Part shown: positions 2,940 to 64,000 of the stretch, in pieces
Position numbering within the stretch: position 1 is the stretch's first letter
How the letters are laid out: each line of letters opens with the position of its first letter
Source: Escherichia phage vB_Eco_F31
Direction: 5' to 3' (one strand)
DNA: 64,000 nt
Sequence record: OP870147.1
Made by a program: the position numbers and the translations under genes
Notes under the pieces: generated by a model
Told to the model about the DNA's origin: nothing
Database searches by the model: none
Seen by the model: the letters and a program-made list of their open reading frames with translations, nothing else

Positions 2940-5256
<2,317 letters not shown>

Positions 5257-9523: not shown

Positions 9524-9759
9524 TGGACGATTTAATTCAAGCTATTAAATCAAACGACCTCGTTGCTACTCGAAAGTTTTTTGAAAGTGCAATGGCAGAA
9601 AAAGCGGTTCGTTTGATTGAAGCACGCAAAGCAGAAATCGCTTCTCAATTTTTGATTGAAGGCGAAGAACCTGAAGAAGAAAAGAAAGCTAAAGCTTCGG
9701 AAGACGACGCTGATGAAGGCGATGACGACGAAGACGAAGATGATGAGGACGATGAATAA
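9523..9759 (+). CDS. 67: prohead core protein gp67
   Basis: 78 aa with strongly acidic D/E-rich C-terminus; position between 20 and 68 as in T4. Confidence 0.7.
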
Positions 9760-10184
9760 TGTATCTTATCCCTGAATCTTATGAATTGGTACTCGAAAAT
9801 GTCGAAGCACTTATTCCTGAAGCACAGGGCCGAATCGATGCATTGTCTTCTGCTCTCGATATTGACGATATAAATACTATTATCGAGAACATGCTTGAAA
9901 CTGAAACGGATTTAGCTGTTGCAATGGCTTCCATTATTAATGAAGAACAGTTAAATGAGTTTATCGTTAAACATGTTTCTTCTCGTGGTGAAGTCACCCG
10001 CACTAAAGACCGTAAAACTCGTGAACGTAACGCGTTCCAAACCACTGGTCTTTCTAAAGCAAAACGTAGACAAATCGCTCGTAAGGTCGTTAAAGCTAAA
10101 AAAGCTAACCCTTCAGGCCAAGTTAAAGGCTTGCGTAAGCGTAAAAAAGCTCTTAAACGTCGTAAAGCATTAGGATTAAGCTAA
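9759..10184 (+). CDS. 68: prohead core protein gp68
   Basis: 141 aa, basic C-terminus; position between 67 and 21 as in T4. Confidence 0.7.
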
Positions 10185-38213: not shown

Positions 38214-38795
38214 TTATTCACCACAAAAGTTTCGGATTTGTTCCCAATTCAGAGAACGAAGATTATTACGAGAGTACTGAATTACTTCAATACCGGCTTG
38301 TTTTAGAATGTCTGCCCAATTTTCAGGAGATCGGTCGTATAATTCTGCATATACAACCTTTTTAATACCTGACTGTGTAATAGCTTTAGTGCAATCAGGA
38401 CACGGAGAAAGCGTCGTATATAACGTAGCACCTTCAATAGAATTACCTTTACGAGCTGCAAATAAAATTGCATTCAGTTCAGCATGGATTTCATTATTAG
38501 CAGACCATGCACTATGAGCGGCCCGATGTTCTTTAGCCAAAACAAAATTATCCACCCGTCCAAATGCTGTAGTGCCTTCTTTATGCCCAGCAACGATGAC
38601 CGGGCTTGGTTTATTCTTCAACCAACCGTTTTCGGATGCATGTTCGCAACAGTTTGTACCACCTGAAGGAGAGCCATTATAACCTGTAGAAATAATGCGT
38701 CCATCTTTTTCAATGACGGCGCCAACTTTCCATGAACAACATTTTGATTCTTGAGAAATCAGATATGCAATCTGAAGGTATGTGCTAGCTTTCAT
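38214..38795 (-). CDS. cd: dCMP deaminase
   Basis: 193 aa, same length as T4 Cd; zinc-binding deaminase motifs (HAE..., SPCPDC). Confidence 0.9.
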   Translation of the reverse strand: MKASTYLQIAYLISQESKCCSWKVGAVIEKDGRIISTGYNGSPSGGTNCCEHASENGWLKNKPSPVIVAGHKEGTTAFGRVDNFVLAKEHRAAHSAWSANNEIHAELNAILFAARKGNSIEGATLYTTLSPCPDCTKAITQSGIKKVVYAELYDRSPENWADILKQAGIEVIQYSRNNLRSLNWEQIRNFCGE

Positions 38796-39787
38796 TATTG
38801 AACCTTATTAATATAAGTTAACAGCTCTTTAGTTTGTTCCCAACTGATGCACGCATCGGTAACGGAAACGCCATAGGACATATTATCAGAAATTTTTTGA
38901 TTTCCTTCATGTAGGAACGATTCTATCATAATTCCTTTGACCAAATCATTAGCTGCTAAATTTTTACCAATACCAATTTGATTGCTATAATGCCCATCAG
39001 CGTTTGCATGGCTACAGTCAACCATTACATAATGATTCAGACCTACTGCCCTTGCTTTGTTAGAAGCTTCTTGAATATCAGAAGAATGATAGTTCGGGCC
39101 GTTGGTCCCGCCACGCAATACGATATGCGTATTCTGATTACCTTCAGCTTCAACAATGCCTACAGTACCATCGACGTCCATACCCATATACCGATGAGGC
39201 CAGGCGGCACTATACATCGCGTCTGTAGCTACTTTAATAGAACCATTGGTTGCGTTCTTGAAGCCTACGCACATCGGTAGACCTGAAGCAATTTCACGAT
39301 GTGTCTGACTTTCAGTCGTACGGGCACCAATAGCAACCCATGAGAAAATACCAGAAAGATACTTAATCGTGAATGGGTCTAATACTTCAGTTGCTAATGG
39401 AAGTCCCATACGTAGAAGTTTACGACACAATGTTCGTGCAACTATAAGACCGTGGTTCATATCAAAACTTCCGTCAAGATATGGATCATTTACAAGACCT
39501 TTCCAACCTACGGTAGTTCGAGGCTTTTCAAAATAAACGCGCATCACTAACAGAACATTAGGAAGACGAGTTTGAAGTTCAGCCAGACGTTTGCCGTATT
39601 CAACAGCAGCAATAGGGTCATGAATTGAACAAGGACCTACAACAATAAGTTTGCGTGGGTCTTCACCGTTCATAATCGAATTAACTTGTTCGCGATGAGA
39701 AGCCACTTGTGATGCGTAAGCTTCCGACAAAGGAATAATCTCGGCCAGTTCTTTTGGAGAAATAAGTTTTCCGACGACAGGTAACAT
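38795..39787 (-). CDS. 3-deoxy-D-arabino-heptulosonate-7-phosphate (DAHP) synthase, class I (AroG/AroF/AroH family)
   Basis: 330 aa; VGPCSIHD, VYFEKPRTTVGWKGL, GARTTESQ, DCSHAN, ESFLHEGNQ, SVTDACISWE align with E. coli AroG catalytic/metal-binding motifs; AAGGA RBS before ATG at 39787. Confidence 0.9.
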   Translation of the reverse strand: MLPVVGKLISPKELAEIIPLSEAYASQVASHREQVNSIMNGEDPRKLIVVGPCSIHDPIAAVEYGKRLAELQTRLPNVLLVMRVYFEKPRTTVGWKGLVNDPYLDGSFDMNHGLIVARTLCRKLLRMGLPLATEVLDPFTIKYLSGIFSWVAIGARTTESQTHREIASGLPMCVGFKNATNGSIKVATDAMYSAAWPHRYMGMDVDGTVGIVEAEGNQNTHIVLRGGTNGPNYHSSDIQEASNKARAVGLNHYVMVDCSHANADGHYSNQIGIGKNLAANDLVKGIMIESFLHEGNQKISDNMSYGVSVTDACISWEQTKELLTYINKVQ

Positions 39788-43187: not shown

Positions 43188-43675
43188 GTTTTAATAATCT
43201 CAATGATTTCATCTCGGGATAATCCATTGATAAGAACGGTTTTCAAACCATCACACTGGATTTTGTACGATTCAAACAATACACACAACTCTTCTGCTGT
43301 ATGATATGGACTTGAAATTCCGAGGCGGTTGAATTTGTCGGTAAGAGGGTCGCAAATAATGTAGAATTTTATACCTGCGATATGTACGTTTGGTTGACTA
43401 ATATTAACGAAAACATTAGCGTCATATTTAGTCAAATTGTTTTGAAGAAATTCTACCATGGCATTAACTGCTTCTGGCATCGCTTCGCGTTTCTCTTCAG
43501 CGTATCGGGTGGAATACTCTTTTTGTTTTACTTTCTTTTTAAGATTTTTGGCCAGTGTAACACGTAGGTCAGTAAGATAACCAACTGGACGTCCTTTCTT
43601 AAAGACTCGGATTCCGTCAGTTGTGTCTCCAAAAGCGGTTACGACCATATCATTAGTAATCAATTGCATATTCAT
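43175..43675 (-). CDS. alc: Alc (inhibitor of host transcription on dC-DNA)
   Basis: 166 aa (T4 Alc 167 aa); position between rnlA and spanins as in T4. Confidence 0.7.
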   Translation of the reverse strand: MNMQLITNDMVVTAFGDTTDGIRVFKKGRPVGYLTDLRVTLAKNLKKKVKQKEYSTRYAEEKREAMPEAVNAMVEFLQNNLTKYDANVFVNISQPNVHIAGIKFYIICDPLTDKFNRLGISSPYHTAEELCVLFESYKIQCDGLKTVLINGLSRDEIIEIIKTCLK

Positions 43676-43705
43676 AATTTTCTCCTCGTGTTATTGATAA
43701 AAGCC

Positions 43706-43735
43706 ATAGTAACACCTTCCTTGGTGTTTGTAAAC
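43706..43735 (-). promoter_or_regulatory. early-promoter-like motif GTTTAC-N18-TACTAT upstream of alc
   Basis: Minus strand GTTTAC ... TACTAT, then GAGGAG and ATG of alc; directly after rnlA stop. Confidence 0.45.
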
Positions 43736-43737
43736 CA

Positions 43738-44871
<1,134 letters not shown>

Positions 44872-44888
44872 TCAGTTAGTTTTTTTAA

Positions 44889-44918
44889 ATTGTACCACAA
44901 TCCTTGTGGTATGTAAAC
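44889..44918 (-). promoter_or_regulatory. early-promoter-like motif GTTTAC-N18-TACAAT upstream of rnlA
   Basis: Minus strand GTTTAC ... TACAAT; spacer contains inverted repeat CCACAAggaTTGTGG; then GAGGA and ATG. Confidence 0.45.
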
Positions 44919-45328
44919 TACTTTTTCTTATGTTGGATATTCCAAGGCGGGTTGAACTTTTTGATAAAAAGTGGTTCTTCAAGGTCCATTGTTGCGATGG
45001 TCATTGAACCAAGTTCGTTGGTGACTGAAAGGTCAAAACATTGGCGGGCCCAGAATTCAACCTTTTTGCCTTGCATTAAGGCATCCAAAATCATAAGTGA
45101 TTTTCTTGAATCTGAAGTCTGGTCTTTTCGATTTATGGCTGTTCGATAATAGTTAATGCGTTTCTTTAAATTCTTGGTTTTACCAATATACACGAGTTCG
45201 TCATCTATAGCAATAGCATATATGACATTTTTCTTATTAGGGACATCAACTGTTTTAATTGTTGCATCTTCTAATAGCTCCAATTCTGTATATTTAATAA
45301 AGGAATATTCGGCGGCGATATCTTTCAT
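44918..45328 (-). CDS. denA: endonuclease II (GIY-YIG-like)
   Basis: 136 aa, same as T4 DenA; VIYAIAIDDELVYIGKT motif. Confidence 0.85.
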   Translation of the reverse strand: MKDIAAEYSFIKYTELELLEDATIKTVDVPNKKNVIYAIAIDDELVYIGKTKNLKKRINYYRTAINRKDQTSDSRKSLMILDALMQGKKVEFWARQCFDLSVTNELGSMTIATMDLEEPLFIKKFNPPWNIQHKKK

Positions 45329-45336
45329 AATAAAGT

Positions 45337-45350
45337 GGGACCGAAGTCCC
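45337..45350 (-). terminator. hairpin GGGAC-UUCG-GUCCC (minus strand) between nrdB stop and denA start
   Basis: 5-bp stem with UUCG loop 9 nt upstream of denA ATG; no U-tract. Confidence 0.35.
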
Positions 45351-45354
45351 GTCC

Positions 45355-46533
45355 TTAGAAATATTTTTTGTATGAATTGATTACATTTTGGTCTACATCA
45401 TTATCAATTTGTGCGACAAGATAAGAACTGATTTCAACTTCTTGTGGGGCTGCTTGAACCAAATCAGAGTTCAAATACTCACGAATCCATGGAATAGGAT
45501 GACGAGTTGATACGTCTTTAAGAGGACATGGCAGACCACAACTACGCATACGAGACACGGTAAGATAATCCACAAATTCACTTAGGATTTTAACATTTAG
45601 ACCTGGAAGAGCACCATCTTTAAACAAGTGTTCAGCCCATTCTTTTTCTTGAGCGTTAACTTCCATGAAAATATCAACTGCTTCTTGTTCACACTCTTGA
45701 GCAATTTTGACCCATTCATCACCGTCTTCGCCATCTTGTAAAGCACGAATAATATATTGAGTGCCCTTGAGGTGGAGCTGTTCATCACGAGCAATGAACT
45801 TCATAATCTTGGCATTACCTTCCATGATTTCCATATTCTTGTGGAAGTTAAAGGTGCATGCGAAAGATACATAAAAACGAATAGCTTCTAAGGCATTAAT
45901 AACGTGCAAACAGAGGTAAAGAGATTTCATTAGCTCACGCTTCCAATATGTCTCATGCTCAATAGCATCTTCAATAACGTCTTCGTCTGCATTAATTTCT
46001 TTTTGGTATTCGATATCAGCTTTAGCGTTTTCCCAATAACGAGCTTTAACCAGAACATCATCATAATATCGTCCGATAGATTCGGCACGCTTCATAATAG
46101 CTTCATCTAATACAATCTCATCAAACACCTTCGATGGATCTGTATAAAGATTTCGCATAATATGAGTATATGAACGAGAGTGAATAGTTTCACTGAAAGT
46201 CCATGTAGCAACCCATGTATCTAATGAAGGGTCTGAAAGCAATGACATAAGTACCGCAGATGGTGCTCTACCTTGGATAGAATCTAATAATGATTGATAC
46301 TTAAGGTTGTTGGTAAAGATGTCCTGTTGGAACTGTGGAAGCTTATTAAACTGGGCCGAATCCAACATCAAGTTTACTTCCTCGGGACGCCAAAAGAACG
46401 AGAGCTGCTTTTCGATAAGCTCTTCAAAAACTTTATGACGCTGAATATCATACCGTGCGAGGCCAAGACCAGAACCAAAGAACATCGGTTCGTTCAAAAC
46501 ATCGACTTGTTGTGTGTTAAAAACTGTACTCAT
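45355..46533 (-). CDS. nrdB: ribonucleotide reductase small subunit (uninterrupted)
   Basis: Track start 46545 is GTG; ATG at 46533 gives MSTVFNT as T4 NrdB; di-iron/tyrosyl radical protein; no intron-like interruption. Confidence 0.9.
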   Translation of the reverse strand: MSTVFNTQQVDVLNEPMFFGSGLGLARYDIQRHKVFEELIEKQLSFFWRPEEVNLMLDSAQFNKLPQFQQDIFTNNLKYQSLLDSIQGRAPSAVLMSLLSDPSLDTWVATWTFSETIHSRSYTHIMRNLYTDPSKVFDEIVLDEAIMKRAESIGRYYDDVLVKARYWENAKADIEYQKEINADEDVIEDAIEHETYWKRELMKSLYLCLHVINALEAIRFYVSFACTFNFHKNMEIMEGNAKIMKFIARDEQLHLKGTQYIIRALQDGEDGDEWVKIAQECEQEAVDIFMEVNAQEKEWAEHLFKDGALPGLNVKILSEFVDYLTVSRMRSCGLPCPLKDVSTRHPIPWIREYLNSDLVQAAPQEVEISSYLVAQIDNDVDQNVINSYKKYF

Positions 46534-46587
46534 TATATTTCTCACTTAGTTATTAACTCATCCATGAGTAAATTATAATAAAAAGTC

Positions 46588-48843
46588 TTAAAGCTTACAA
46601 GCAGAACAATCTTCTGCTTTAGGTGTTTCTAATTCATAGTCGTCTGTACCAGACCCATCACGAGTGTTATGATAGTAGAGGTTTTTTCCGCCAAAGTACC
46701 AGAAGTAAAGCAGATCGTCAAGCATTACTGACATTGGCACTTTACCTTTCTCAAATACTGCAGGGTCATAGTAAGTATTAGCAGAAGCAGATTGGCACAC
46801 CCATTTCAACATGATAGCAACTTGGGTCAAATAAGGTTTATTACCTTTCTTAGCAAGTTTCCACGCGTAATCGTAAAGACTCATGTTATGTTCGATATTA
46901 GGAACAACCTGTCGGAAGTTGCCTTCTTTAGATTCTTTAATACTTACTGGACCACGTGGTGGCTCAATCCCGTTTGTAGAGTTTGATACTTGACTGCTTG
47001 ACTCACAAGGCATGAGTGCAGACAACGTTGAGTTACGAATTCCATGTTCTTTGAGTTCAGCTCGAAGTTCTTCCCAGTCACAGACGTAGTTCGGGGCTGC
47101 GATTTGGTCAATCTTTTTATTGTACCAGTCGATAGGTAATTCGCCTCTAGACCATTTAGTGTCTGAATAATACTCGCAACATCCTTTTTCTTTGGCGAGT
47201 TTGATTGATGCTTTGATAAGGCCATATTGTAATCTCTCAAACAATTCATGAGTCAAATCGTTAGCGTCTTCATATGAAGCAAAGTTAGAAGCTAACCATG
47301 CAGCATAGTTCGTAACACCAACACCAAGATTACGACGCTTTTTAGCTTTTAAAGCTTCTGGAACCGGATAATCTTGATAGTCTAACAGGTTATCAAGTGC
47401 ACGTACTTGTACTTCAGCAAGTTCATTAATTTTATCTTGGTCTTGCCAATCAAATTTATCTAATACAAAAGCAGATAATGTGCATAAACCAATTTCAGCA
47501 TCAGGACCATTCACATCATTAGTTGGAATAGCGATTTCACAACATAAGTTACTCTGACGAATTGGAGCTTTTTCACGAATAAACGGAGTGTAGTTATTCG
47601 TGTTATCAACAAACTGTGGATAAATTCGAGCAGTACCAGAGCGTTCAGTCATGAACAATTCAAAGAGTTCTAGTGCTTTGATTCTTTTCTTTCTGATTGT
47701 TGGGTCTTTTTCAGCTTTCTCATAAAGCTCACGGAATTTATCTTGATCTTCAAAGAACGAGTAGTATAGTTCGCCTGACATTTCGTGAGGGCTAAATAAA
47801 GTAATATAATCATTTTTACCAAGGCGTTCCATCATAAGGTCATTAATCTGAATTCCGTAGTCCATATGCCGAATACGGTTTTCATCCACGCCTTTGTTAT
47901 TTTTCAGAACTAATAGGTTCTCTACTTCTAAGTGCCACATCGGATAATACGCTGTAGCAGCACCACCACGAATACCACCTTGAGAACAAGATTTTACTGC
48001 AGTTTGGAAATGTTTCCAGAATGGAATAACGCCCGTATGTCGAACTTCACCCATACCGATCTTAGAACCTTCTGCACGAAGCATACCAACGTTGATACCA
48101 ATACCAGCTCGTTTAGAAATATATTCAATAATTGATGCTGAAGTTTTGTTAATAGATTTTAACGAATCACCGGCTTCAATAACTACACAACTAGAGAACT
48201 GGCGAGTTGGAGTACGAGCACCTGCCATAATTGGGGTTGGCAATGAAACTTGATGAGTAGAAACGGCATCATAAAAACGAATAATATGTTTCAAACGGTC
48301 ATGAGTTTCGTCTTGATGCAATGCCATGCCAATAGCCATGATAGCAAACTGTGGAGTTTCATAAATCTTCCCAGTTGTTTTATCTTTAACTAGATATTTT
48401 TCTTTAAGCTGCATAGCACCAGCATAAGTCAGGTCAAAGTCTCGTTCATGTTTAATCTGTGAATCGAGATAAATGATTTCTTCTGCTGAATATTGAGACA
48501 ACATCTCAGGGTCATATTTGCCTTCATTAACACAATAAGAAATATGGTCGATAAAAGCAGGCGGTTCAAACTGCCCATATACATCTTTACGAAGTGCAAA
48601 CATTAGCCCTTTGGCGGCGACATACTGATAATCAGGTTCTTCGACAGAAATCGAGTTAGCTGCAACTTTAATACAAATCTTCTGGATATCTTTGGTGCTC
48701 ATCCCGTCGACAAGATGGGTCTTAATTTCTTCGTACAATTCATATGGGTCGATTTGTGTTCCTTCACATTGCCAGGTCAGAACTTGGATAATTTTCTGTG
48801 CATCAAAATTTTGGGATACGCCACTGCTCTTAGTTACTTGCAT
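46588..48843 (-). CDS. nrdA: ribonucleotide reductase large subunit
   Basis: 751 aa; ATP-cone N-terminus and class I RNR catalytic regions; size as T4 NrdA. Confidence 0.95.
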   Translation of the reverse strand: MQVTKSSGVSQNFDAQKIIQVLTWQCEGTQIDPYELYEEIKTHLVDGMSTKDIQKICIKVAANSISVEEPDYQYVAAKGLMFALRKDVYGQFEPPAFIDHISYCVNEGKYDPEMLSQYSAEEIIYLDSQIKHERDFDLTYAGAMQLKEKYLVKDKTTGKIYETPQFAIMAIGMALHQDETHDRLKHIIRFYDAVSTHQVSLPTPIMAGARTPTRQFSSCVVIEAGDSLKSINKTSASIIEYISKRAGIGINVGMLRAEGSKIGMGEVRHTGVIPFWKHFQTAVKSCSQGGIRGGAATAYYPMWHLEVENLLVLKNNKGVDENRIRHMDYGIQINDLMMERLGKNDYITLFSPHEMSGELYYSFFEDQDKFRELYEKAEKDPTIRKKRIKALELFELFMTERSGTARIYPQFVDNTNNYTPFIREKAPIRQSNLCCEIAIPTNDVNGPDAEIGLCTLSAFVLDKFDWQDQDKINELAEVQVRALDNLLDYQDYPVPEALKAKKRRNLGVGVTNYAAWLASNFASYEDANDLTHELFERLQYGLIKASIKLAKEKGCCEYYSDTKWSRGELPIDWYNKKIDQIAAPNYVCDWEELRAELKEHGIRNSTLSALMPCESSSQVSNSTNGIEPPRGPVSIKESKEGNFRQVVPNIEHNMSLYDYAWKLAKKGNKPYLTQVAIMLKWVCQSASANTYYDPAVFEKGKVPMSVMLDDLLYFWYFGGKNLYYHNTRDGSGTDDYELETPKAEDCSACKL

Positions 48844-49139
48844 ATGTCCTCTATATTAAATTCGTCTTTAAAAAGTTTATTAACCACTAGAGCTATTATA
48901 TCACCATGACAGGCTTTTGGTTTACATGTGCATCCCAGACGCATACCACGTAAAGGTTCTAGATGAGCTTTTGTGATTTCTCCACACTTAATTCTCTTAA
49001 TAAAATCCTTTTTGAAAAGCTCAATAGCTTCTTCTCGGGAAGAGGCATCCTTGCCTACATAATTTCCCCAGAATGTGCCACGATGAATATTAACATCAAA
49101 ATCGGATTTATATTTATTCACAACGCGGCACATTTTCAT
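48834..49139 (-). CDS. small Cys/His-motif protein (101 aa), position of T4 nrdA.1
   Basis: Motif LGCTCKPKACHGD; overlaps nrdA start by 10 nt; ATG overlaps upstream stop. Confidence 0.55.
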   Translation of the reverse strand: MKMCRVVNKYKSDFDVNIHRGTFWGNYVGKDASSREEAIELFKKDFIKRIKCGEITKAHLEPLRGMRLGCTCKPKACHGDIIALVVNKLFKDEFNIEDICK

Positions 49140-49393
49140 TACATGTCCTCTGCAATAATTTCTTCGTATTCTTTAGGAGTCAAGACCGTGATATTAAAAT
49201 AAACCAACGGTTCTTTTTCTATACCGAATCCACCACAGAATTCACGATATTCATAAATTCGTTCATGTGAATAACAAATGAATCGTTCACCTTTAACTGT
49301 GATTTCACTATTTGGTGAAGGGATATCCAGTTCACTTGGATTTTTCATTTCAAAAATTGTGGTGCCATATGAATTAATAAAACGTAAAATCAT
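49139..49393 (-). CDS. hypothetical protein (84 aa), between td and nrdA
   Basis: ATG ORF in operon orientation. Confidence 0.5.
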   Translation of the reverse strand: MILRFINSYGTTIFEMKNPSELDIPSPNSEITVKGERFICYSHERIYEYREFCGGFGIEKEPLVYFNITVLTPKEYEEIIAEDM

Positions 49394-49394
49394 T

Positions 49395-50255
49395 TTATAC
49401 CGCCATTTTAGCTTTGATAGCTGGATGAGATTCGTAATTTTTAAGAACGAAATCAGAATGTGTCATCGTTCCAGTAACCCAGTCCATTTGGATTTTTGTA
49501 GGCCAATTCTCAAAATTACTAGGCCAATTAATTTCAAGAGAACATAACTCTTTAGGTTCACGACGAAGAACTTCTTTGCATTGTTCTACATGATTGCTGT
49601 AGATATGCGTGTTGCCGCCTGAGAACACTAAATCACCTGGGATAAGGTTACACATCTTCGCTACAATATGCGTCAAGGCAGCGTACGAGGCAATGTTGAA
49701 CGGCAGGCCCAAGAAAACATCTACACTGCGTTGATACCATTGTAAATCAAGATGCCCATTACGCACATTAAATTGATAGAACATATGACAAGGAGGAAGA
49801 GCCATTTGGTCAATTTCGGCAGGGTTCCATGCAGAAACTATTTGACGACGATCATTAGGAAGAGCTTTAATACGGTCGATAGTTTTGACCAATTGGTCTA
49901 CACCACCAAAATCACGCCATTGCTTACCATAAATAGGACCAAGTTCGCCGCTATGATATCCAAGGTCTTTTGCCTGATTTTCATAGTTGTCGTCCCAAAT
50001 AGTTTTACCTTGAATAAGACTACCATGAGTACGAATACGCAAATCATTAACATTGGTAGAACCAGACATGAACCACAGTAACTCGGCAATACAAGCTTTC
50101 CATGCTAATTTCTTAGTTGTTACTGCAGGGAATCCTTTAGTCAGATCCCAACGTAATTTAGTTCCGAACAGGGCAATAGTGCCGGTACCTGTACGGTCGT
50201 CTGTTTCGTAGCCATTTTCTAGGATATCATTAATCAGGTATTGGTATTGTTTCAT
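49395..50255 (-). CDS. td: thymidylate synthase (uninterrupted, no intron)
   Basis: 286 aa, same as T4 Td; catalytic PPCH motif; continuous reading frame. Confidence 0.95.
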   Translation of the reverse strand: MKQYQYLINDILENGYETDDRTGTGTIALFGTKLRWDLTKGFPAVTTKKLAWKACIAELLWFMSGSTNVNDLRIRTHGSLIQGKTIWDDNYENQAKDLGYHSGELGPIYGKQWRDFGGVDQLVKTIDRIKALPNDRRQIVSAWNPAEIDQMALPPCHMFYQFNVRNGHLDLQWYQRSVDVFLGLPFNIASYAALTHIVAKMCNLIPGDLVFSGGNTHIYSNHVEQCKEVLRREPKELCSLEINWPSNFENWPTKIQMDWVTGTMTHSDFVLKNYESHPAIKAKMAV

Positions 50256-50839
50256 TTATAAACGCTCTCAGTAATTTCGGTGAGTTCATCGATTCTGTAG
50301 TAATGAGATTCTACCATAGAACGTTGAAGCATAATATCTTGGATGAAATCTTTATCAAGTTGAACGTCTGAATTAACACGACATTTCTTAATGATTTTAG
50401 TCATCACGATTTCATCGGCATAAGGCAGTGCTTGTTTTAATAAAGCGGGGCCACCAATAACAGATACATCAACATGTTCAGTAGAAAGTTTAAACGGTAC
50501 ATCAGTTGCAGGGCTAAACAGGTTAATTTCATCACCTGTTACCAAGGTAATAAATTCAGATTGGGTGATATAGAACCGTGCAAGTTCATCAGTTTTAGTC
50601 CTAGGCAGTTTTCTGGCCATATCAGTGACAACCACATGAGTACGATCTGGGAGTAGACGAGGTAATGATGCAAATGTATTAGCACCCATAACCATTACAG
50701 TGTTTTTAGTGCGAGCAACAAAGTTACTCATATCTTGTTTGATATGCTTCCATGGAAGTCCATCACCTAATCCAAAAGCATATTCCAGTTTATCATCAAC
50801 TGTTTTAGATGGTGCGCATGCGAATACTAATTTAAGCAT
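50252..50839 (-). CDS. frd: dihydrofolate reductase
   Basis: 195 aa from ATG at 50839 (MLKLVFACAPSKTVD, cf. T4 Frd MIKLVF...); the 223-aa track ORF adds a 28-aa N-terminal extension overlapping the upstream gene. Confidence 0.85.
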   Translation of the reverse strand: MLKLVFACAPSKTVDDKLEYAFGLGDGLPWKHIKQDMSNFVARTKNTVMVMGANTFASLPRLLPDRTHVVVTDMARKLPRTKTDELARFYITQSEFITLVTGDEINLFSPATDVPFKLSTEHVDVSVIGGPALLKQALPYADEIVMTKIIKKCRVNSDVQLDKDFIQDIMLQRSMVESHYYRIDELTEITESVYK

Positions 50840-51080
50840 TTTTAAGTCCTTTAATAACTTTTTGGATTTGTGATTTAGAAGAAACCAAATCAGTCTGGAT
50901 TTGACAACCATCGGTTGGGTCAAATATTATAACACAAACGCGAGGTTTTGTTGTGTATCGCCCGGACAAATCAAATGCGTCACCAATGAATTCGGCCAAA
51001 TCCGGATGGTCTAAATTAACTGAAGTATAAACTTCATATCCGACATCAGCGCCTTGAGAGTATTCAACAACAACATTCAT
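50832..51080 (-). CDS. hypothetical protein (82 aa), frd.1 position
   Basis: ATG ORF ending 7 nt from frd start. Confidence 0.5.
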   Translation of the reverse strand: MNVVVEYSQGADVGYEVYTSVNLDHPDLAEFIGDAFDLSGRYTTKPRVCVIIFDPTDGCQIQTDLVSSKSQIQKVIKGLKNA

Positions 51081-51082
51081 AA

Positions 51083-51331
51083 TTATTTCCTCAGATTTTT
51101 CTTAACAACTTTCCAATCAGCTTTAAACGATTCAACATCAGAGTGGTGAATCCAGAATCCTGCACTTTCACCATCTTCGTAGAGTGGACATCCATCACAT
51201 TCTTCGTTCCAACCCATTTCACGTAAAGCTTCTTCAGCTTGTTCAAGGAGTTCAGCGTCTTTACCAACGATGTTGAAGTACCATTTACCTCTAACTTCAG
51301 AATCTTTGATGCTCTGGCGTTGCAATCTCAT
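51083..51331 (-). CDS. hypothetical protein (82 aa from ATG at 51331)
   Basis: Track start 51346 is GTG; ATG at 51331 has AGGAG RBS and early-promoter motif upstream. Confidence 0.5.
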   Translation of the reverse strand: MRLQRQSIKDSEVRGKWYFNIVGKDAELLEQAEEALREMGWNEECDGCPLYEDGESAGFWIHHSDVESFKADWKVVKKNLRK

Positions 51332-51364
51332 TTTATTCTCCTTCACTTTTGATTTGATAGGGCT

Positions 51365-51394
51365 ACTATAACATAACCCTATCTTGTTATAAAC
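51365..51394 (-). promoter_or_regulatory. early-promoter-like motif GTTTAT-N18-TATAGT
   Basis: Minus strand GTTTAT ... TATAGT; -10 bracketed by inverted repeat GATAGGG/CCCTATC (51356-51383). Confidence 0.4.
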
Positions 51395-51786
51395 TACTTT
51401 TTAAAAGTTTTTTGCAAAAGTTCGATGATTTCGTCGACGTTGGTTTCATCTACGACACAATGTATTTTTGTTACACCTAAAGTTATACCTTCGTTAGTAG
51501 GTTGAGGCTTTACTATATCTACCTCAGTAAAGTATTTGAACTCGTCAGGATAAATCTCAAAATAAGTTTCAATTTCACCACCGGCAGAACATACAGTACC
51601 ATCTTCCATAGTTACACTTACTACGTTTGACGTATCGCTATCATAATCAGGTTCCATTCCGTTTACAACAAAACTAGGCCCATGGAGTTCAATCAATTTT
51701 AACATCTTAGCGTTATTGTGTGGTGCTTCTTGAACAAAGTCATCTTTAAATAAAGGGTTAATGATATAAGATTTTCCGATTTCCAT
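51394..51786 (-). CDS. hypothetical protein (130 aa)
   Basis: ATG at 51786 with AGGA RBS and early-promoter motif upstream. Confidence 0.55.
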   Translation of the reverse strand: MEIGKSYIINPLFKDDFVQEAPHNNAKMLKLIELHGPSFVVNGMEPDYDSDTSNVVSVTMEDGTVCSAGGEIETYFEIYPDEFKYFTEVDIVKPQPTNEGITLGVTKIHCVVDETNVDEIIELLQKTFKK

Positions 51787-51815
51787 TTTGATTTCCTCAT
51801 GTTGTTGATAGGTCT

Positions 51816-51844
51816 ATAGTATCATGTTTAAAGGAAAAGTAAAC
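51816..51844 (-). promoter_or_regulatory. early-promoter-like motif GTTTAC-N17-TACTAT
   Basis: Minus strand GTTTAC ... TACTATAGACCTATCAACAACATGAGGAAATC then ATG of the 130-aa gene. Confidence 0.45.
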
Positions 51845-51875
51845 AACTTTTTCGGCAATTTACAGATACTCAAAA

Positions 51876-51893
51876 GGGAGACCGAAGTCTCCC
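51876..51893 (-). terminator. rho-independent terminator GGGAGAC-UUCG-GUCUCCC + U-tract (minus strand) after gene 32
   Basis: Identical 18-nt hairpin 7 nt after gene 32 stop, followed by UUUUG. Confidence 0.55.
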
Positions 51894-51899
51894 AATTTA

Positions 51900-52802
51900 T
51901 TATAGACCAGCTAACAGGTCATCGAGGTCGCCATCATCAGAGGATGAGGTAGAGCTCATGAAGTCATCTTCAGTTTTTGCAGAACTAAAGGCTTCCATGT
52001 CTTTATCAAAATCGTCAAGGTCAGAAGCAACTTTATCTGCAACAGAAGCTGCTGCGGCTGCTGCACCACCAAGAGCGGCAGTACCAAGAACCTTAGCGAA
52101 AGATTCATTTAATTTTTCAAAGGATTTGAACTGGTCTTTAGCCGTCAAAGTAGTAAGGTCTACCATCTGGTCATATAGTTCTTTCTGGAACGCTTCGTCA
52201 TTAATACGAGGAATTTCAGATTGACCCAAGAATTTAGATTCGTCATAGTTGCTAAAACCAGAAACCTGCTTAGCTTTCAGAACGAAGTTGGCACCTTCAA
52301 ACGGACAAGTAACATCAACTGGAGTTTCACCCATTTCGGTATCAACAGCAATCATTGCATTGATTTTGTCCCAAATCTTTTTACCGAAACGATATTTAAA
52401 TACTTTACCTTCGTTATCTGGAGCTTGAGGGTCTTTAACAACCAGAATATTAGCCCAATAAGAAGTTTTACGTTTCAGTTGAGAATATTCATTTTTGTTG
52501 GTATTGTACAGGTCATTTTTACTAATGTACTGACATACAGGACAAGAGTCGTAATCGCCGTGTGTAGAAGAGCAATTTTCAATATACCATTTACCATTTT
52601 TCTTGAAACCGTGGTTAACAAGAATTGCAAATGGTAGTGCATCATCAGTTTTTGCTGGCAAGAAACGAATTACCGCTTGACCATTACCTGATGCATCTAG
52701 CTTCAGCTTCCATTCGCCTTTATCTTCTGAAGAGAAACCTTTGTTACCGTTCAGTTTAGCCATTTGAGCAGCGAGGTCAGCAGTAGATTTACGTTTAAAC
52801 AT
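51900..52802 (-). CDS. 32: single-stranded DNA-binding protein gp32
   Basis: 300 aa; zinc-binding H..C..C..C region ([11 protein letters not shown]), acidic C-terminus; AT-rich leader. Confidence 0.95.
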
Positions 52803-52918: not shown

Positions 52919-53572
52919 TTAATACTTACATGATTTGATTGTTTCTATGAACAATTTCTTAGCAGCATTTCCATCGATTTGAAGTATTTTTCGATATGCC
53001 TTTAATTTGGTAGAATAATTTTGCCAGACTAAATTGTCGGTAAGTTCGTCATGCTTATCTATAATATTCAAGAATGAATCTAACAACAAGAAGGTTTCAA
53101 ATGAAATTATATTGCTTTGTAGCAATTTAAATATGTAGCTCGACTGAACTTTATTATTATAATCAAATATCTCTTGAAGCGCACTAACTTCCACTTTCTT
53201 ACTGAAATAGTAGATGTTACGTACGTCTTCAGCAAACGTCTCCTTGGCTTGTTTGAGACGTCCAATATATTCCCTATAGAAAACTAATGCATCAGCGTCT
53301 GATATCTCACCGATCCATGCGTCTTGGTTAGCAACTAAGTTGCTTATGAATATCAAGGTGAGTTCCTTCAATTTATATTTCTCTGCTAGTTTTTCAAAGA
53401 AATATTTATCTCGGCGTTTTTGATACGCATTATCCGAAACACGCATGCACCAGTTATATTTGATTACGTCATACCGACCATTAAAATGTTGTTTGCACAT
53501 CAAGTATAGTTTGTATACCGATTTTCCGTTAATATAACGTTCTCCATCAGGAGGCATGCGTATTTTAATCAT
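52919..53572 (-). CDS. 59: helicase loader gp59
   Basis: 217 aa, same as T4 gp59; position upstream of gene 32. Confidence 0.85.
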   Translation of the reverse strand: MIKIRMPPDGERYINGKSVYKLYLMCKQHFNGRYDVIKYNWCMRVSDNAYQKRRDKYFFEKLAEKYKLKELTLIFISNLVANQDAWIGEISDADALVFYREYIGRLKQAKETFAEDVRNIYYFSKKVEVSALQEIFDYNNKVQSSYIFKLLQSNIISFETFLLLDSFLNIIDKHDELTDNLVWQNYSTKLKAYRKILQIDGNAAKKLFIETIKSCKY

Positions 53573-53907
53573 AATAAGAAATCTAACGTATTAGTTTTTT
53601 CACCACGAGCAACTGATGGGCGAAGCATGTTTTCGTCAATTGCTTCGCTTGTAATTTTTTCAATAATTCCTGTAGGAATAAATTTAGCAAATTGTGTTTC
53701 TGGAATAGAATTTTCTTCCAAGAAAGCAGTTGTTGCTTCTAAATAAGACATACCAAATTGTTCAACCATGGATTCGATAATGAATCCGTTTTCTTGTCGG
53801 TCAAGCAATTTAGCGATATCATCTTTATCGTGTTTTACTGCTAATTCTTGTTCAGATAAACCGGCCTCATCAACCGGTTTAATATCACTTAGTGAAAACT
53901 GTGTCAT
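53569..53907 (-). CDS. 33: late transcription co-activator gp33
   Basis: 112 aa, same as T4 gp33; position between dsbA and 59. Confidence 0.8.
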   Translation of the reverse strand: MTQFSLSDIKPVDEAGLSEQELAVKHDKDDIAKLLDRQENGFIIESMVEQFGMSYLEATTAFLEENSIPETQFAKFIPTGIIEKITSEAIDENMLRPSVARGEKTNTLDFLL

Positions 53908-60930: not shown

Positions 60931-63900
60931 ATGGCTACATTAAAACAGATACAATTTAAAAGAAGCAAAGTAGCAGGAGTTAATCCTACTGCAGCACAAT
61001 TAGCCGAAGGCGAATTAGCGATAAACTTAAAAGATCGAACTCTTTTTACTAAAGATGACCTCGGTAATATTATTAGCCTAGGCTTTGCTAAGGGTGGGGA
61101 TATTAACGGTAATGTAACTCAAACTGGTGATTATTTACAAAACGGCACATATAATCTCAATGGAAATCAGTTTGTTTATGCAGGAAAATACATTGAATTT
61201 TTACCTAAAACCACTGGAAATGGCGCTTGGGCTAACCAACATTCGAATAAAGCCCCTATCTTTACAGATTTAAGTTCAACTACTTCTGTTTCAGAATACC
61301 ATCCACTGATTAAACAACGCTATAAAGATGGAACTTTTTCTGCTGGTACATTAGTAAACGAAGGTAGTTTTAAATTCCATTATATTGATGAAACCGGGAC
61401 TTCAAAATACTGGACTTTTAATCGAAACGGTAATTTTCAAGTTGATTCCGGAAGTTTATTAGTATCTAATGGATATTTAGTTACTCAAAGTAATATTGAA
61501 ACTAAAGCTGGTTCTTTAATTGGTCCTAAAGTTATTACCAAAAATATCAATGTGAGCACTAAATCTTGGGACACTAATATTGATACTGCATATGATTTAG
61601 TTTCATTACCGACTTGGCACTATACTCCAACCGAAACAGATTTGGATACTAATGGTATAAACTACCTTCGTAAATTCCGCGGACACGTTTCTTCTGCTAT
61701 TTTCCATGAAGTTGCTGATGCTCGTTCAGGTAAACCACAGAATATTTCGTATTGGACGGGACGTAATGCTGAAGTTTATCAATGGTCTTATACCACAGAT
61801 GGGCGTATGTCTGTTGCTAATTCGATAGGTATAGGTCTTGCTGATGTTGGTGACCAAGGACGTTATCCATTGGTTTCGTTTGGTAAAGGTATTGCAATTG
61901 GTGACAATGATACTGGTATTAAATGGGTTCGTGACGGGGTTATCGATTTAGTTGCGAATGGTATTTCTGCCGGCACTATTCTTAATAACGGTATTAACAG
62001 TACTAAAAAATTGATGGTTGGTTATAGTCGAGATTCTGGTTCTACTTGGGATTACCCAAATAACAACCAAGCAATGTTTACTGCGCGTACCGATGTTGAT
62101 GGTAATAATAACGGTGACGGTCAGACTCATATTGGTTATAGCAGCAATGCCAAGATGTATCACTATTTCCGTGGTACAGGTCGGATGTCCGTTAGTATGG
62201 GCGATGGACTTCTTGTTGAGCCTGGCATTTTAGATATTAAGACTGGTTCAAATTCGTTAAATTTGCGTGCTGATGGTACCATCGCTTCTGTTCAAACGTT
62301 AAAACTTAATAATGGATTATATTTTAATGGCGATGGAACTAATGCTTCTCTAGTTTTTAAAGCAGCTTCAGGTATTGATGGCACTAAGCAAATCATGTGG
62401 GAAGGCGGTACTCGAGCAGGTCAGAATAAGAGTTATGTAACGGCTAAAGCATGGGGTAATTCATTTAATGCCACTGGTGATAAATCTCGTGAAACTGTAT
62501 TTGAAGTTAGTGACGGGCATGGATACCATTTTTATTCTCAACGTGTAGCTCCTGCGCCTGGTTCTACCGTTGGACCTATTCAATTTCGAGTTAATGGTGG
62601 TTTATTAACTTCAGGTAGTATTGTTACTTCTGGTTCTATTACAACTGAATCTTCTTTAAGTGTTAATAATGGCATGTCAGTAAATGGACAAGCTAAATTC
62701 GGTGGAACAGCCGACGCATTAAGAATTTGGAACGCTGAATACGGCGCTATTTTCCGACGTTCAGAAACAAGTCTGTACATTATTCCGACTCCTAAAGATG
62801 CCGGTGAAAGTGGTGGAATAAGTAATCTTCGCCCGTTTTATATCAATTTAGGCGATGGCCAAGTTTCTATGGACCATGTAGTAGATATCGGCGGTGGTAG
62901 ATTTAAAGTAGATACAACCGGTACTACGGCTGGTCAACGCATAACAGTAAATATGGCATCAGATGCTATTAGAATAAATGCTCCAACACAAAAGTCTTCT
63001 AACTTCATTCAAGGACGTAAAGCAGATGTTCCGAAATGGTATTTAGGTATTGGCGATGGTGGCAACGTCGTTCGTATGCACAGCTACACATATTCACATG
63101 GTATTGCATTAAACTCTGATTCTGTCGATATTACTAAACCATTAAAAGTTGGAAATGCTCAATTCGGTACTGATGGTAACATCACTGGAGGCACTGGTAA
63201 CTTTGCTAACTTGAATACCACAATAAATAACCTTAAGACGGATATTGTCTCGAGTTACCCAATTGGTGCTCCGATTCCTTGGCCTACTGATACACCTCCT
63301 GAAGGTTATGCCATAATGGAAGGTCAAACATTTGATGCTGGCTTGTATCCTAAGTTAGCTGCGGTGTATCCTTCCGGCTCTCTGCCTGATATGCGTGGTC
63401 AAACTATCAAGGGTAAACCATCTGGGCGTGCTGTATTGAGTACAGAAGCAGACGGTGTTAAGTCACATAGCCATAGTGCAAGTGCATCAAGCACAGATTT
63501 GGGTACTAAGACCACGTCAAGTTTTGATTATGGTACTAAGACGACAAGTAGCTTCGACTATGGTACTAAGACCAGCAATACCACTGGTAATCATAACCAT
63601 ACAGTGAGTGGTAATACTGGTTCCGCTGGTGCGCACCAACACGCGCGTTCAGGCCCTCAGATACAAGGCGGCGTACCACAAGGCGGCGTACCCACTAGCA
63701 TATTCTATGATGGATACAATAGTGCGGGACCAAACGGCAACGCTAAAATCACTGGATCCGTGAGCGGTGCTCCTGCATCGTCGAATATGGCCAAAACTTC
63801 TTCAGACGGTGCCCACACCCATAGTTGGTCAGGAACTACTAGCGCTACGGGTAACCATGCTCATACTGTGGGTATCGGTGCCCATACACATACTGTAGGT

Positions 63901-63999
63901 ATTGGTGCCCACTCTCATTCGGTAGCGATTGGTTCCCATGGACATACAATAACTGTAAATGCCACAGGAAATACAGAAAATACTGTTAAAAACGTTGCT
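60931..63999 (+). CDS. 37: long tail fibre distal subunit gp37 (receptor-recognising), 3' end outside window
   Basis: ATG at 60931; N-terminus [13 protein letters not shown] as T4 gp37; frame open to window end (>1023 codons); His-x-His repeats near the end. Confidence 0.9.
63496..63960 (+). repeat. short tandem peptide repeats in gp37 distal region ([10 protein letters not shown] x3; H-x-H-(T/S)-V-(G/A)-I-G-(A/S) x3-4)
   Basis: Seen in translation: [28 protein letters not shown] and [30 protein letters not shown]. Confidence 0.6.
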
Positions 64000-64000
64000 T

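Follow-up and report, generated by a model that had tools for sequence, protein, structure and literature searches.

In T4, td and nrdB each carry a group I intron, together with the homing endonucleases I-TevI and I-TevIII, respectively. The question raised by the corresponding locus of Escherichia phage vB_Eco_F31 is whether both genes are truly free of introns and, if so, whether they have lost them, resist them or have never received them. We consider it highly probable that both genes are ordinary intron-less alleles of the Mosigvirus lineage, most likely never invaded, and that both intron positions are empty homing sites.

The analysis covers a stretch of 64,000 nucleotides (OP870147.1), here referred to as the window. 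Judged from its sequence, the window comes from a Mosigvirus, i.e., an RB69-like T-even phage. Shigella phage JK42 (MK962756) is collinear with it over the td-nrdA-nrdB region with 98.9% nucleotide identity, and the JK42 record annotates td and nrdB as intact. Over positions 44900-51000, JK42 and Escherichia phage moha (MN850590) are 98.6-98.9% identical to the window and share its gene order, unbroken td and nrdB, and the lack of mobE. Elsewhere, JK42 has, between genes 59 and 33, a gene for a Seg-like GIY-YIG endonuclease that is missing from the window, and it lacks the DAHP synthase gene that the window contains.

The features of the region are collected in Table 1. The initial annotation described td (286 aa) and nrdB (392 aa) as continuous, and this is borne out by the single reading frames, the Pfam matches and the collinearity with the spliced T4 genes. 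The td product covers the full Thymidylat_synt model (1-266/266, E 2.5e-97, 325.7 bits, cut-off 24.3), while the nrdB product matches the class Ia ribonucleotide reductase small subunit model, likewise over its full length, with an E-value of 1.1e-35 (123.8 bits, cut-off 33.6). The nrdB reading frame reaches a GTG at 46545 (45355-46545), and the ATG at 46533 is the start annotated in JK42.

Table 1. Features of the td-nrdA-nrdB region, in window coordinates. A slash in a site sequence marks the intron insertion point.
Feature	Position	Strand	Basis or remark
td, thymidylate synthase, 286 aa, unbroken	49395-50255	-	single ORF; Pfam PF00303; collinear with spliced T4 td
Empty I-TevI homing site, 38 bp (-27..+11), CAACGCAGTGTAGATGTTTTCTTGGGC / CTGCCGTTCAA	49696-49733	-	alignment; motif rules from PMC5009752, PMC2988022
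nrdA.2-like gene, DUF5496, 84 aa, not a nuclease	49139-49393	-	
nrdA.1-like gene, DUF4326, 101 aa, not a nuclease	48834-49139	-	
nrdA, ribonucleotide reductase large subunit, 751 aa, unbroken	46588-48843	-	
nrdA-nrdB spacer, 42 bp	46546-46587	.	T4 has nrdB.1 and mobE at the equivalent place
nrdB, ribonucleotide reductase small subunit, 392 aa from ATG 46533, unbroken	45355-46533	-	single ORF; Pfam PF00268; collinear with spliced T4 nrdB
Empty nrdB intron site, ...TTTTTATGTATCTTTCGCAT / GCACCTTTAAC	45835-45887	-	alignment; I-TevIII cuts (-14/-16) at 45871-45873
denA, endonuclease II, 136 aa, GIY-YIG-family nuclease	44918-45328	-	Pfam PF01541; T4 DenA orthologue

Alignment with T4, which the initial annotation had proposed as a way to locate the insertion sites, shows a sole break in each gene. 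In td the break is at 49706/49708, where T4 has 1017 extra bases, and in nrdB it is near 45850 and corresponds to 598 additional bases in T4. The one other place at which the alignment of the region is interrupted is mobE/nrdB.1. The insertion points are between 49707 and 49706, after nt 549 of td, and between 45858 and 45857, after nt 676 of nrdB. Both are empty, with zero inserted bases in the window.

The same two positions are occupied in close relatives. The intron-plus Mosigviruses vB_EcoM_G2469 (MK327934), AV111 (OR352941), vB_EcoM_KAW3E185 (MK373782) and JK45 (MK962757) have flanking genes 97-99% identical to the window, and they carry a td intron of 1016 nt, 90% identical to that of T4, and/or an nrdB intron of 1091 nt, 99.9% identical to that of RB3. 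In G2469, both the 1016 nt and the 1091 nt are found at exactly the empty positions of the window. As near-identical Mosigviruses carry both introns at the exact sites, the lineage has been invaded in nature.

Introns were searched for with the Rfam model Intron_gpI (RF00028). At the gathering threshold this model misses the real introns of T4 and G2469 too, so such a scan alone is uninformative and its null result in the window was dropped as evidence. It was replaced by the E-value mode with T4 as positive control, in which the T4 td and nrdB introns score 40.3 and 35.7 bits, respectively. In this mode, positions 43500-52000 have no match even at E<=10, and the whole 64-kb window has none at E<=0.01. 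Together with the empty insertion points, this sustains the claim that td and nrdB contain no group I intron. The statement covers these two genes; nrdD, the third intron host gene of T4, is located outside the window.

No intron homing endonuclease was detected either, as had been claimed. Eight homing endonucleases (two versions each of I-TevI and I-TevIII, MobE, and the enzymes of AV111, KAW3E185 and JK42) were searched against the window with tblastn, giving nothing better than E 0.047. GIY-YIG and HNH HMMs run against all 557 ORFs of the window gave, apart from denA, nothing better than E 0.068, and the homing-endonuclease architecture (a GIY-YIG or HNH domain with a NUMOD or I-TevI-type DNA-binding domain) was not found in the window. 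However, the initial annotation went too far in stating that no GIY-YIG or HNH reading frame lies inside or beside the two genes. The denA reading frame is only 26 bp downstream of nrdB, between rnlA (43738-44862) and nrdB, and its product matches the GIY-YIG model with an E-value of 2.5e-6 (28.1 bits, cut-off 22.6). We rejected denA as a homing endonuclease: it is syntenic with T4 denA, 107 of the 136 residues of its product are identical to T4 DenA, and this endonuclease II has no DNA-binding extension.

On the other side of nrdB, the short distance to nrdA leaves no space for mobE or nrdB.1. In KAW3E185, the same spacer contains a gene for a 232-aa MobE-like HNH/NUMOD3 protein that the window lacks. 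In AV111, nrdA is split by an HNH endonuclease gene at the equivalent of window positions 47497-47509, while nrdA of the window is unbroken. The nrdA.1-like gene is missing from both G2469 and AV111.

The td site shares host gene and target position with the I-TevI intron of T4 (after codon 183, FLG/LPF). The intron and I-TevI are both missing from the window, and the td exons are only 75% identical overall to those of T4. I-TevI cleaves at a 5'-CNNNG-3' motif, natively CAACG, in which only C1 and G5 are critical, and the enzyme is described as sequence-tolerant (PMC5009752). We looked for this motif 23-27 nt upstream of the insertion site; CAACG is found at -27 to -23 (window 49729-49733), at the same spacing as in T4 and with both C1 and G5 intact. 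Over the 38 bp, the site is identical to the spliced T4 site at 32 positions and to the exon flanks of intron-plus G2469 at 35. The DNA-binding domain of I-TevI covers a stretch of 20 bp with the insertion site at its centre (PMC2988022). This region is 17/20 identical both to T4 (differences at -1, +3 and +9) and to G2469 (differences at -4, -1 and +3). The bases beside the insertion point, C at -1 and G at +3, are of the intron-minus type, unlike those of the intron-plus alleles.

The nrdB site also shares its target position with the RB3/T4 intron, while the intron, I-TevIII and the free-standing mobE are all missing from the window. Positions -60 to -6 are identical to T4, including the I-TevIII cut region at -14/-16 (footprint and cut positions according to PMC1865063). 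The only differences from all intron-plus alleles are at -5, -2 and +2, all three synonymous; some intron-plus alleles differ further at +17 and +23. The window bases at these three positions (C, A and C) are of the intron-minus type. At -2, A is present in nine of nine sampled intron-minus alleles, whereas intron-plus alleles have G. In the homing targets, which the initial annotation had proposed to check, the CAACG spacing and the I-TevIII cut region are preserved, and next to the insertion site td differs from the intron-plus alleles at -1 and +3 and nrdB at -5, -2 and +2.

Among roughly 900-1300 T4-like records, the td intron is present in about 260 phage records and the nrdB intron in 129. 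Intron-free td and nrdB are the majority state among T4 relatives. Mosigvirus-type exons, defined as at least 90% identical to the G2469 junction query, are joined to the intron in about 12 records for nrdB and about 22 for td, of which a few may be mosaics from other genera. In G2469, AV111 and KAW3E185, donor-type bases adjoin the insertion sites, in conversion tracts of varying length. In IMG/VR, scans for the exact junction patterns found 7 contigs with an empty and 1 with an occupied nrdB junction, and for td 0 and 2, respectively; these numbers are too small for statistics, and the IMG/VR nrdB loci were used solely for tabulating the bases that flank the site.

Could the genes contain a small ORF-less intron, or have a degenerate endonuclease remnant in or beside them, that has been missed? 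Besides the insensitivity of the Rfam gathering threshold, it speaks for this that ORF-less td intron variants occur in other phages, for example in phage N2, with about 250 extra bases. However, the coding sequences line up codon by codon with the spliced T4 genes and with JK42, the intergenic gaps are at most 42 bp, and the permissive Rfam mode is negative here although it recovers the T4 introns. The alignments effectively refute a hidden element, and we regard its chance as negligible. Alternatively, the introns could once have been present and then been lost by precise deletion, which would make the empty sites secondary. The nrdB insertion site is located in a block of 180 bp with 92-98% identity to T4, compared with 78% for the whole gene, and this block can be read as an old conversion tract. 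However, away from the site, nrdB has two further blocks (nt 331-450 and 799-888) that are equally T4-like, so the block at the insertion site is not special. Moreover, precise loss of an intron would leave donor-type flanks, while both sites in the window are flanked by the intron-minus bases and every intron-plus allele by the donor type. The block was therefore rejected as the footprint of an earlier invasion, and intron loss is very unlikely.

It could also be speculated that the alleles are free of introns through resistance, the synonymous changes reducing endonuclease binding or spoiling the P1 pairing and making the sites poor recipients; for instance, the U.G wobble of the 5' splice site loses its U through the C at -1 of td. 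In agreement with this, the differences from the intron-plus alleles are synonymous throughout and concentrated no more than 5 nt from the insertion sites, the A at -2 of nrdB is invariant in the sampled intron-minus alleles, and the stretch bound by the DNA-binding domain of I-TevI has the insertion site at its centre (PMC2988022). However, the same pattern is predicted from co-conversion and from the need of the intron to pair with the exon in intron-plus alleles. The td -1 C would itself be replaced, because the break is upstream and the stretch from the break to the insertion point is copied from the donor. The tolerance of I-TevI, with both critical bases intact in the window, also argues against resistance (PMC5009752). 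Around the insertion site, natural intron-minus td alleles of Tequatrovirus are at least as different from T4 as the window is, and the records that join Mosigvirus-type exons to the intron imply that such alleles do get invaded. Resistance is thus unlikely. That the changes (td -1 C and +3 G; nrdB -5 C, -2 A and +2 C) are a selected immunity lowering cleavage by I-TevI and I-TevIII is quite unlikely, although, if true, it would explain why the genus is mostly free of introns despite co-circulating intron-plus relatives.

We therefore return to alleles that were most likely never invaded; the window keeps the flanking bases common to the other sampled intron-minus alleles. The initial annotation had called the phage an intron-minus recipient for homing. 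The intron-minus part of this is established, and a role of the td and nrdB positions as recipient sites is plausible and has indirect support. If a co-infecting related phage were to supply I-TevI or I-TevIII, a double-strand break would be expected upstream of the insertion point, at a distance of 23/25 nt in td and of 14/16 nt in nrdB. Donor-templated repair would be expected to bring in the intron, together with conversion of a short part of the flanking exon. That these enzymes would cut the DNA of the window is predicted from the empty sites, the conserved motifs and the intron-bearing relatives. A point against it is that the td site differs from the characterised substrates at 6 of 38 positions, and the nrdB site at three positions, none of them more than 5 nt from the insertion site.

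The significance implied by the initial annotation was, however, overstated, because intron-free td and nrdB are in the majority and RB69 has already been described as lacking homing endonuclease genes (PMC2993671), T4 being described as the outlier (PMC2993671, PMC2988022). The absence of the introns is real but ordinary, already known and expected for an RB69-like phage, as it is for most T4 relatives, and hence of little importance.

Conceptually, the alleles of the window have the same role as those of T2, the classical intron-minus and mobE-minus recipient in crosses with T4, in which co-infection leads to cutting and conversion of the allele that lacks the element (PMC2790892, PMC2988022). 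However, T2 is closely related to T4 and able to recombine with it, while RB69 is reported to exclude T4 completely, and no recombination has been seen between the two (PMC2993671). T4 is for this reason a poor donor for the phage of the window, and a cross between them is unlikely to work. The right donors would instead be the intron-plus Mosigviruses. A minor practical value is that the empty sites are now defined by exact coordinates and sequences, and that G2469, JK45 and AV111, at 97-99% identity, can be named as suitable natural donors for a homing cross within the genus.

Alignment with T4 clearly shows that td and nrdB of vB_Eco_F31 are intron-free. T4 and the window region are merely 75-80% identical, and their alignment is broken only at the td intron, the nrdB intron and nrdB.1/mobE. 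In the T4 record, both genes consist of two joined pieces, with I-TevI within td and a defective I-TevIII within nrdB, while nrdB.1 and mobE lie between nrdA and nrdB. Using the exon ends as anchors, zero bases are inserted at the two sites in the window, compared with 1017 nt (td) and 598 nt (nrdB) in T4. The empty td site is located at 49707/49706, after nt 549 of the gene (FLG/LPF), and the empty nrdB site at 45858/45857, after nt 676; the gap from nrdA to nrdB is 42 bp.

Genes of the td-nrdB region and its surroundings (window coordinates)
Feature	Coordinates	Strand	Remarks
rnlA	43738-44862	-	
denA	44918-45328	-	endonuclease II orthologue
nrdB	45355-46533	-	392 aa from ATG 46533; ORF extends to GTG at 46545
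nrdA	46588-48843	-	751 aa, intact
DUF4326 gene	48834-49139	-	nrdA.1-like
DUF5496 gene	49139-49393	-	nrdA.2-like
td	49395-50255	-	286 aa, thymidylate synthase model covered end to end
frd	from 50252	-	
gene 32	51900-52802	-	
gene 59	52919-53572	-	

The Rfam scan at gathering threshold returned no match in the window. However, it also misses the genuine introns in the T4 and G2469 loci and is therefore uninformative here. In E-value mode, the group I model RF00028 finds both introns in the T4 locus L001, at 4509-4749 (nrdB, 35.7 bits) and 9596-9826 (td, 40.3 bits), both under its gathering score of 50. With this positive control, there is no match at E<=10 in 43500-52000, td and nrdB included, and none at E<=0.01 across the whole window. 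The intron-minus state proposed in the initial annotation is thus borne out by both alignment and model search. As default Rfam is blind to the T4 introns, claims of intron absence in T4-like phages need E-value mode or alignment.

The closest relative is Shigella phage JK42, fully collinear with 44900-51000 at 98.9% identity; Escherichia phage moha is at 98.6%. The JK42 record gives the genus as Mosigvirus, which includes RB69. The DUF4326 gene is shared by the window, JK42 and KAW3E185, while G2469 and AV111 have about 90 bp instead. Elsewhere, about 300 bp of the hoc region (JK42 113268-113565) are missing from the window at about 17505, and the distal long-tail-fibre genes (62253-64000) diverge from JK42, with identity down to 90% and gaps. 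Unlike JK42, the window also contains a class I DAHP synthase gene (330 aa, 38795-39787, minus strand; PF00793, E 5e-75), located between the dCMP deaminase gene cd (38214-38795) and an ORF resembling cd.2. It occurs in 212 phage records, usually annotated as phospho-2-dehydro-3-deoxyheptonate aldolase, so it is already known as an auxiliary metabolic gene in Mosigvirus and other T4-like phages.

How common is the intron-free state? The record counts are rough, as entries are redundant and the genus is not assigned for all of them: 260 phage records contain td intron sequence (199 near full length) and 129 contain nrdB intron sequence, while megablast with the td-nrdB region gives 908 matching records, blastn with the td junction gives 1293, and in 785 the td insertion site is covered without a break. 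The window's region is matched at >=90% identity by about 155 records. Junctions of a Mosigvirus-type exon with the intron, also counted at >=90% identity, are found in about 12 (nrdB) and about 22 (td). The direction is still clear: intron-free is the norm, in agreement with the literature. Intron-free td and nrdB are real but ordinary, already known for these phages, and the feature is of low interest. In some Tequatrovirus-like records, ON645936 (N2), ON720975 (GRNsp7), OQ992558 (L14) and PP418986 (UPWr_E2), td seems to contain a short insertion of about 250 bp, or no more than about 32% of the intron; these may be intron variants without the endonuclease.

On the coding strand, the td site reads CAACGCAGTGTAGATGTTTTCTTGGGC/CTGCCGTTCAA in the window, CAACGCTCAGTAGATGTTTTCTTGGGT/CTACCGTTTAA in spliced T4 and CAACGCAGTGTAGATGTTTTCTTAGGT/CTACCGTTCAA in the G2469 exons. 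The cleavage motif of I-TevI, which cuts 23/25 nt upstream of the insertion point, is CAACG, with C1 and G5 as its critical bases (PMC2988022, PMC5009752). This motif is intact at 49729-49733, with correct spacing. The nrdB site is ...TTTTTATGTATCTTTCGCAT/GCACCTTTAAC in the window and ...TTTTTATGTATCTTTTGCGT/GTACCTTTAAC in T4, G2469, AV111 and KAW3E185; the window differs at three positions (-5, -2 and +2), in each case synonymously. The I-TevIII cuts, 14 and 16 bp upstream (PMC1865063), fall in a stretch identical to T4. Of the 20 bp around the td insertion site, contacted by the I-TevI DNA-binding domain, 17 match T4. Natural intron-minus Tequatrovirus td alleles (TadeuszReichstein, pSs-1) are at least as far from the T4 site near the insertion point. 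Within nrdB, nt 331-450, 589-768 and 799-888 of the CDS are 90-98% identical to T4 (78% for the gene overall), with flanking segments as low as 48-60%, which suggests mosaic exchange or unusually strong synonymous-site constraint.

Sister phages have been invaded. The exons of G2469, AV111, KAW3E185 and JK45 are 97-99% identical to the window. G2469 carries a td intron of 1016 nt with a 245-aa I-TevI (216/245 residues as in T4) and an nrdB intron of 1091 nt with a 269-aa HNH enzyme; AV111, KAW3E185 and JK45 have the nrdB intron. Between the G2469 nrdB intron (1460-2549 of its locus, L002) and its counterpart in Tequatrovirus RB3, identity reaches 99.9%, against about 78% for the nrdB exons of the two genera, which points to recent cross-genus transfer of the intron. 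The td introns of G2469 and T4, in contrast, share only 90% identity. The bases adjoining the insertion sites in these relatives are of donor type, with T4-like nrdB tracts of varying length (-5 to +2 in G2469, to +17 in KAW3E185, to +23 in AV111), a classical co-conversion signature (PMC2988022).

The window retains intron-minus bases at its flanks, and at nrdB -2 it has the A of all nine sampled intron-minus alleles, while all intron-plus alleles have G. This argues for an allele that was probably never invaded, rather than precise loss. The same pattern could be read as flank substitutions conferring resistance to homing, but this is unlikely, as it is also expected from co-conversion and the intron's own exon-pairing needs. 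In td, the U.G wobble of P1, a general feature of group I introns, involves the U at -1, and the G2469 exon change at -4 is paired with changes in the intron guide sequence. Furthermore, as the td break occurs upstream of the insertion point, donor sequence would in any case replace the bases in between. Given the intact cleavage motifs and the invaded sister phages, it is reasonable to regard both sites as putative homing recipients. The use in mixed infections suggested in the initial annotation would call for intron-plus Mosigviruses as donors rather than T4, since RB69 is reported to exclude T4 completely and recombination between them has not been observed (PMC2993671).

The whole window was searched with I-TevI and I-TevIII (both from T4 and G2469), T4 MobE and the AV111, KAW3E185 and JK42 enzymes, and its 557 stop-to-stop ORFs with small GIY-YIG and HNH profiles. 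No homing endonuclease was found; the sole match is denA, a GIY-YIG protein (PF01541, E 2.5e-6) located 26 bp downstream of nrdB. The earlier wording that no GIY-YIG or HNH ORF lies inside or beside the two genes therefore fails. The protein, which shares 107/136 residues with T4 DenA, is the orthologue of endonuclease II and not a homing enzyme.

Between genes 59 and 33, JK42 encodes a Seg-like GIY-YIG endonuclease of 227 aa with SegE_GIY-YIG, NUMOD3 and I-TevI DNA-binding domains (2217-2900 of its locus, L007; JK42 148216-148899). In the window this junction is clean (53569-53573), so a free-standing homing endonuclease likewise has an empty site here. In AV111, a 236-aa HNH/I-HmuI-NUMOD-like gene (4260-4970 of locus L003, equivalent to window 47497-47509) lies between two annotated nrdA pieces, resembling the published genes-in-pieces RNR arrangement, while the window nrdA is intact. 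In KAW3E185, nrdA and nrdB are separated by a gene for a MobE-like protein of 232 aa (3222-3920 of locus L004, equivalent to window 46546-46587). Over its first ~117 residues this protein nearly matches T4 MobE (119 identities over the full 141 aa of the latter), but T4 MobE lacks the NUMOD3 repeats and Cys-rich tail that follow, so the T4 gene may be a truncated form. The KAW3E185 nrdB exon 1 shares only 88.5% identity with the window, as would fit co-conversion in a MobE-type event.
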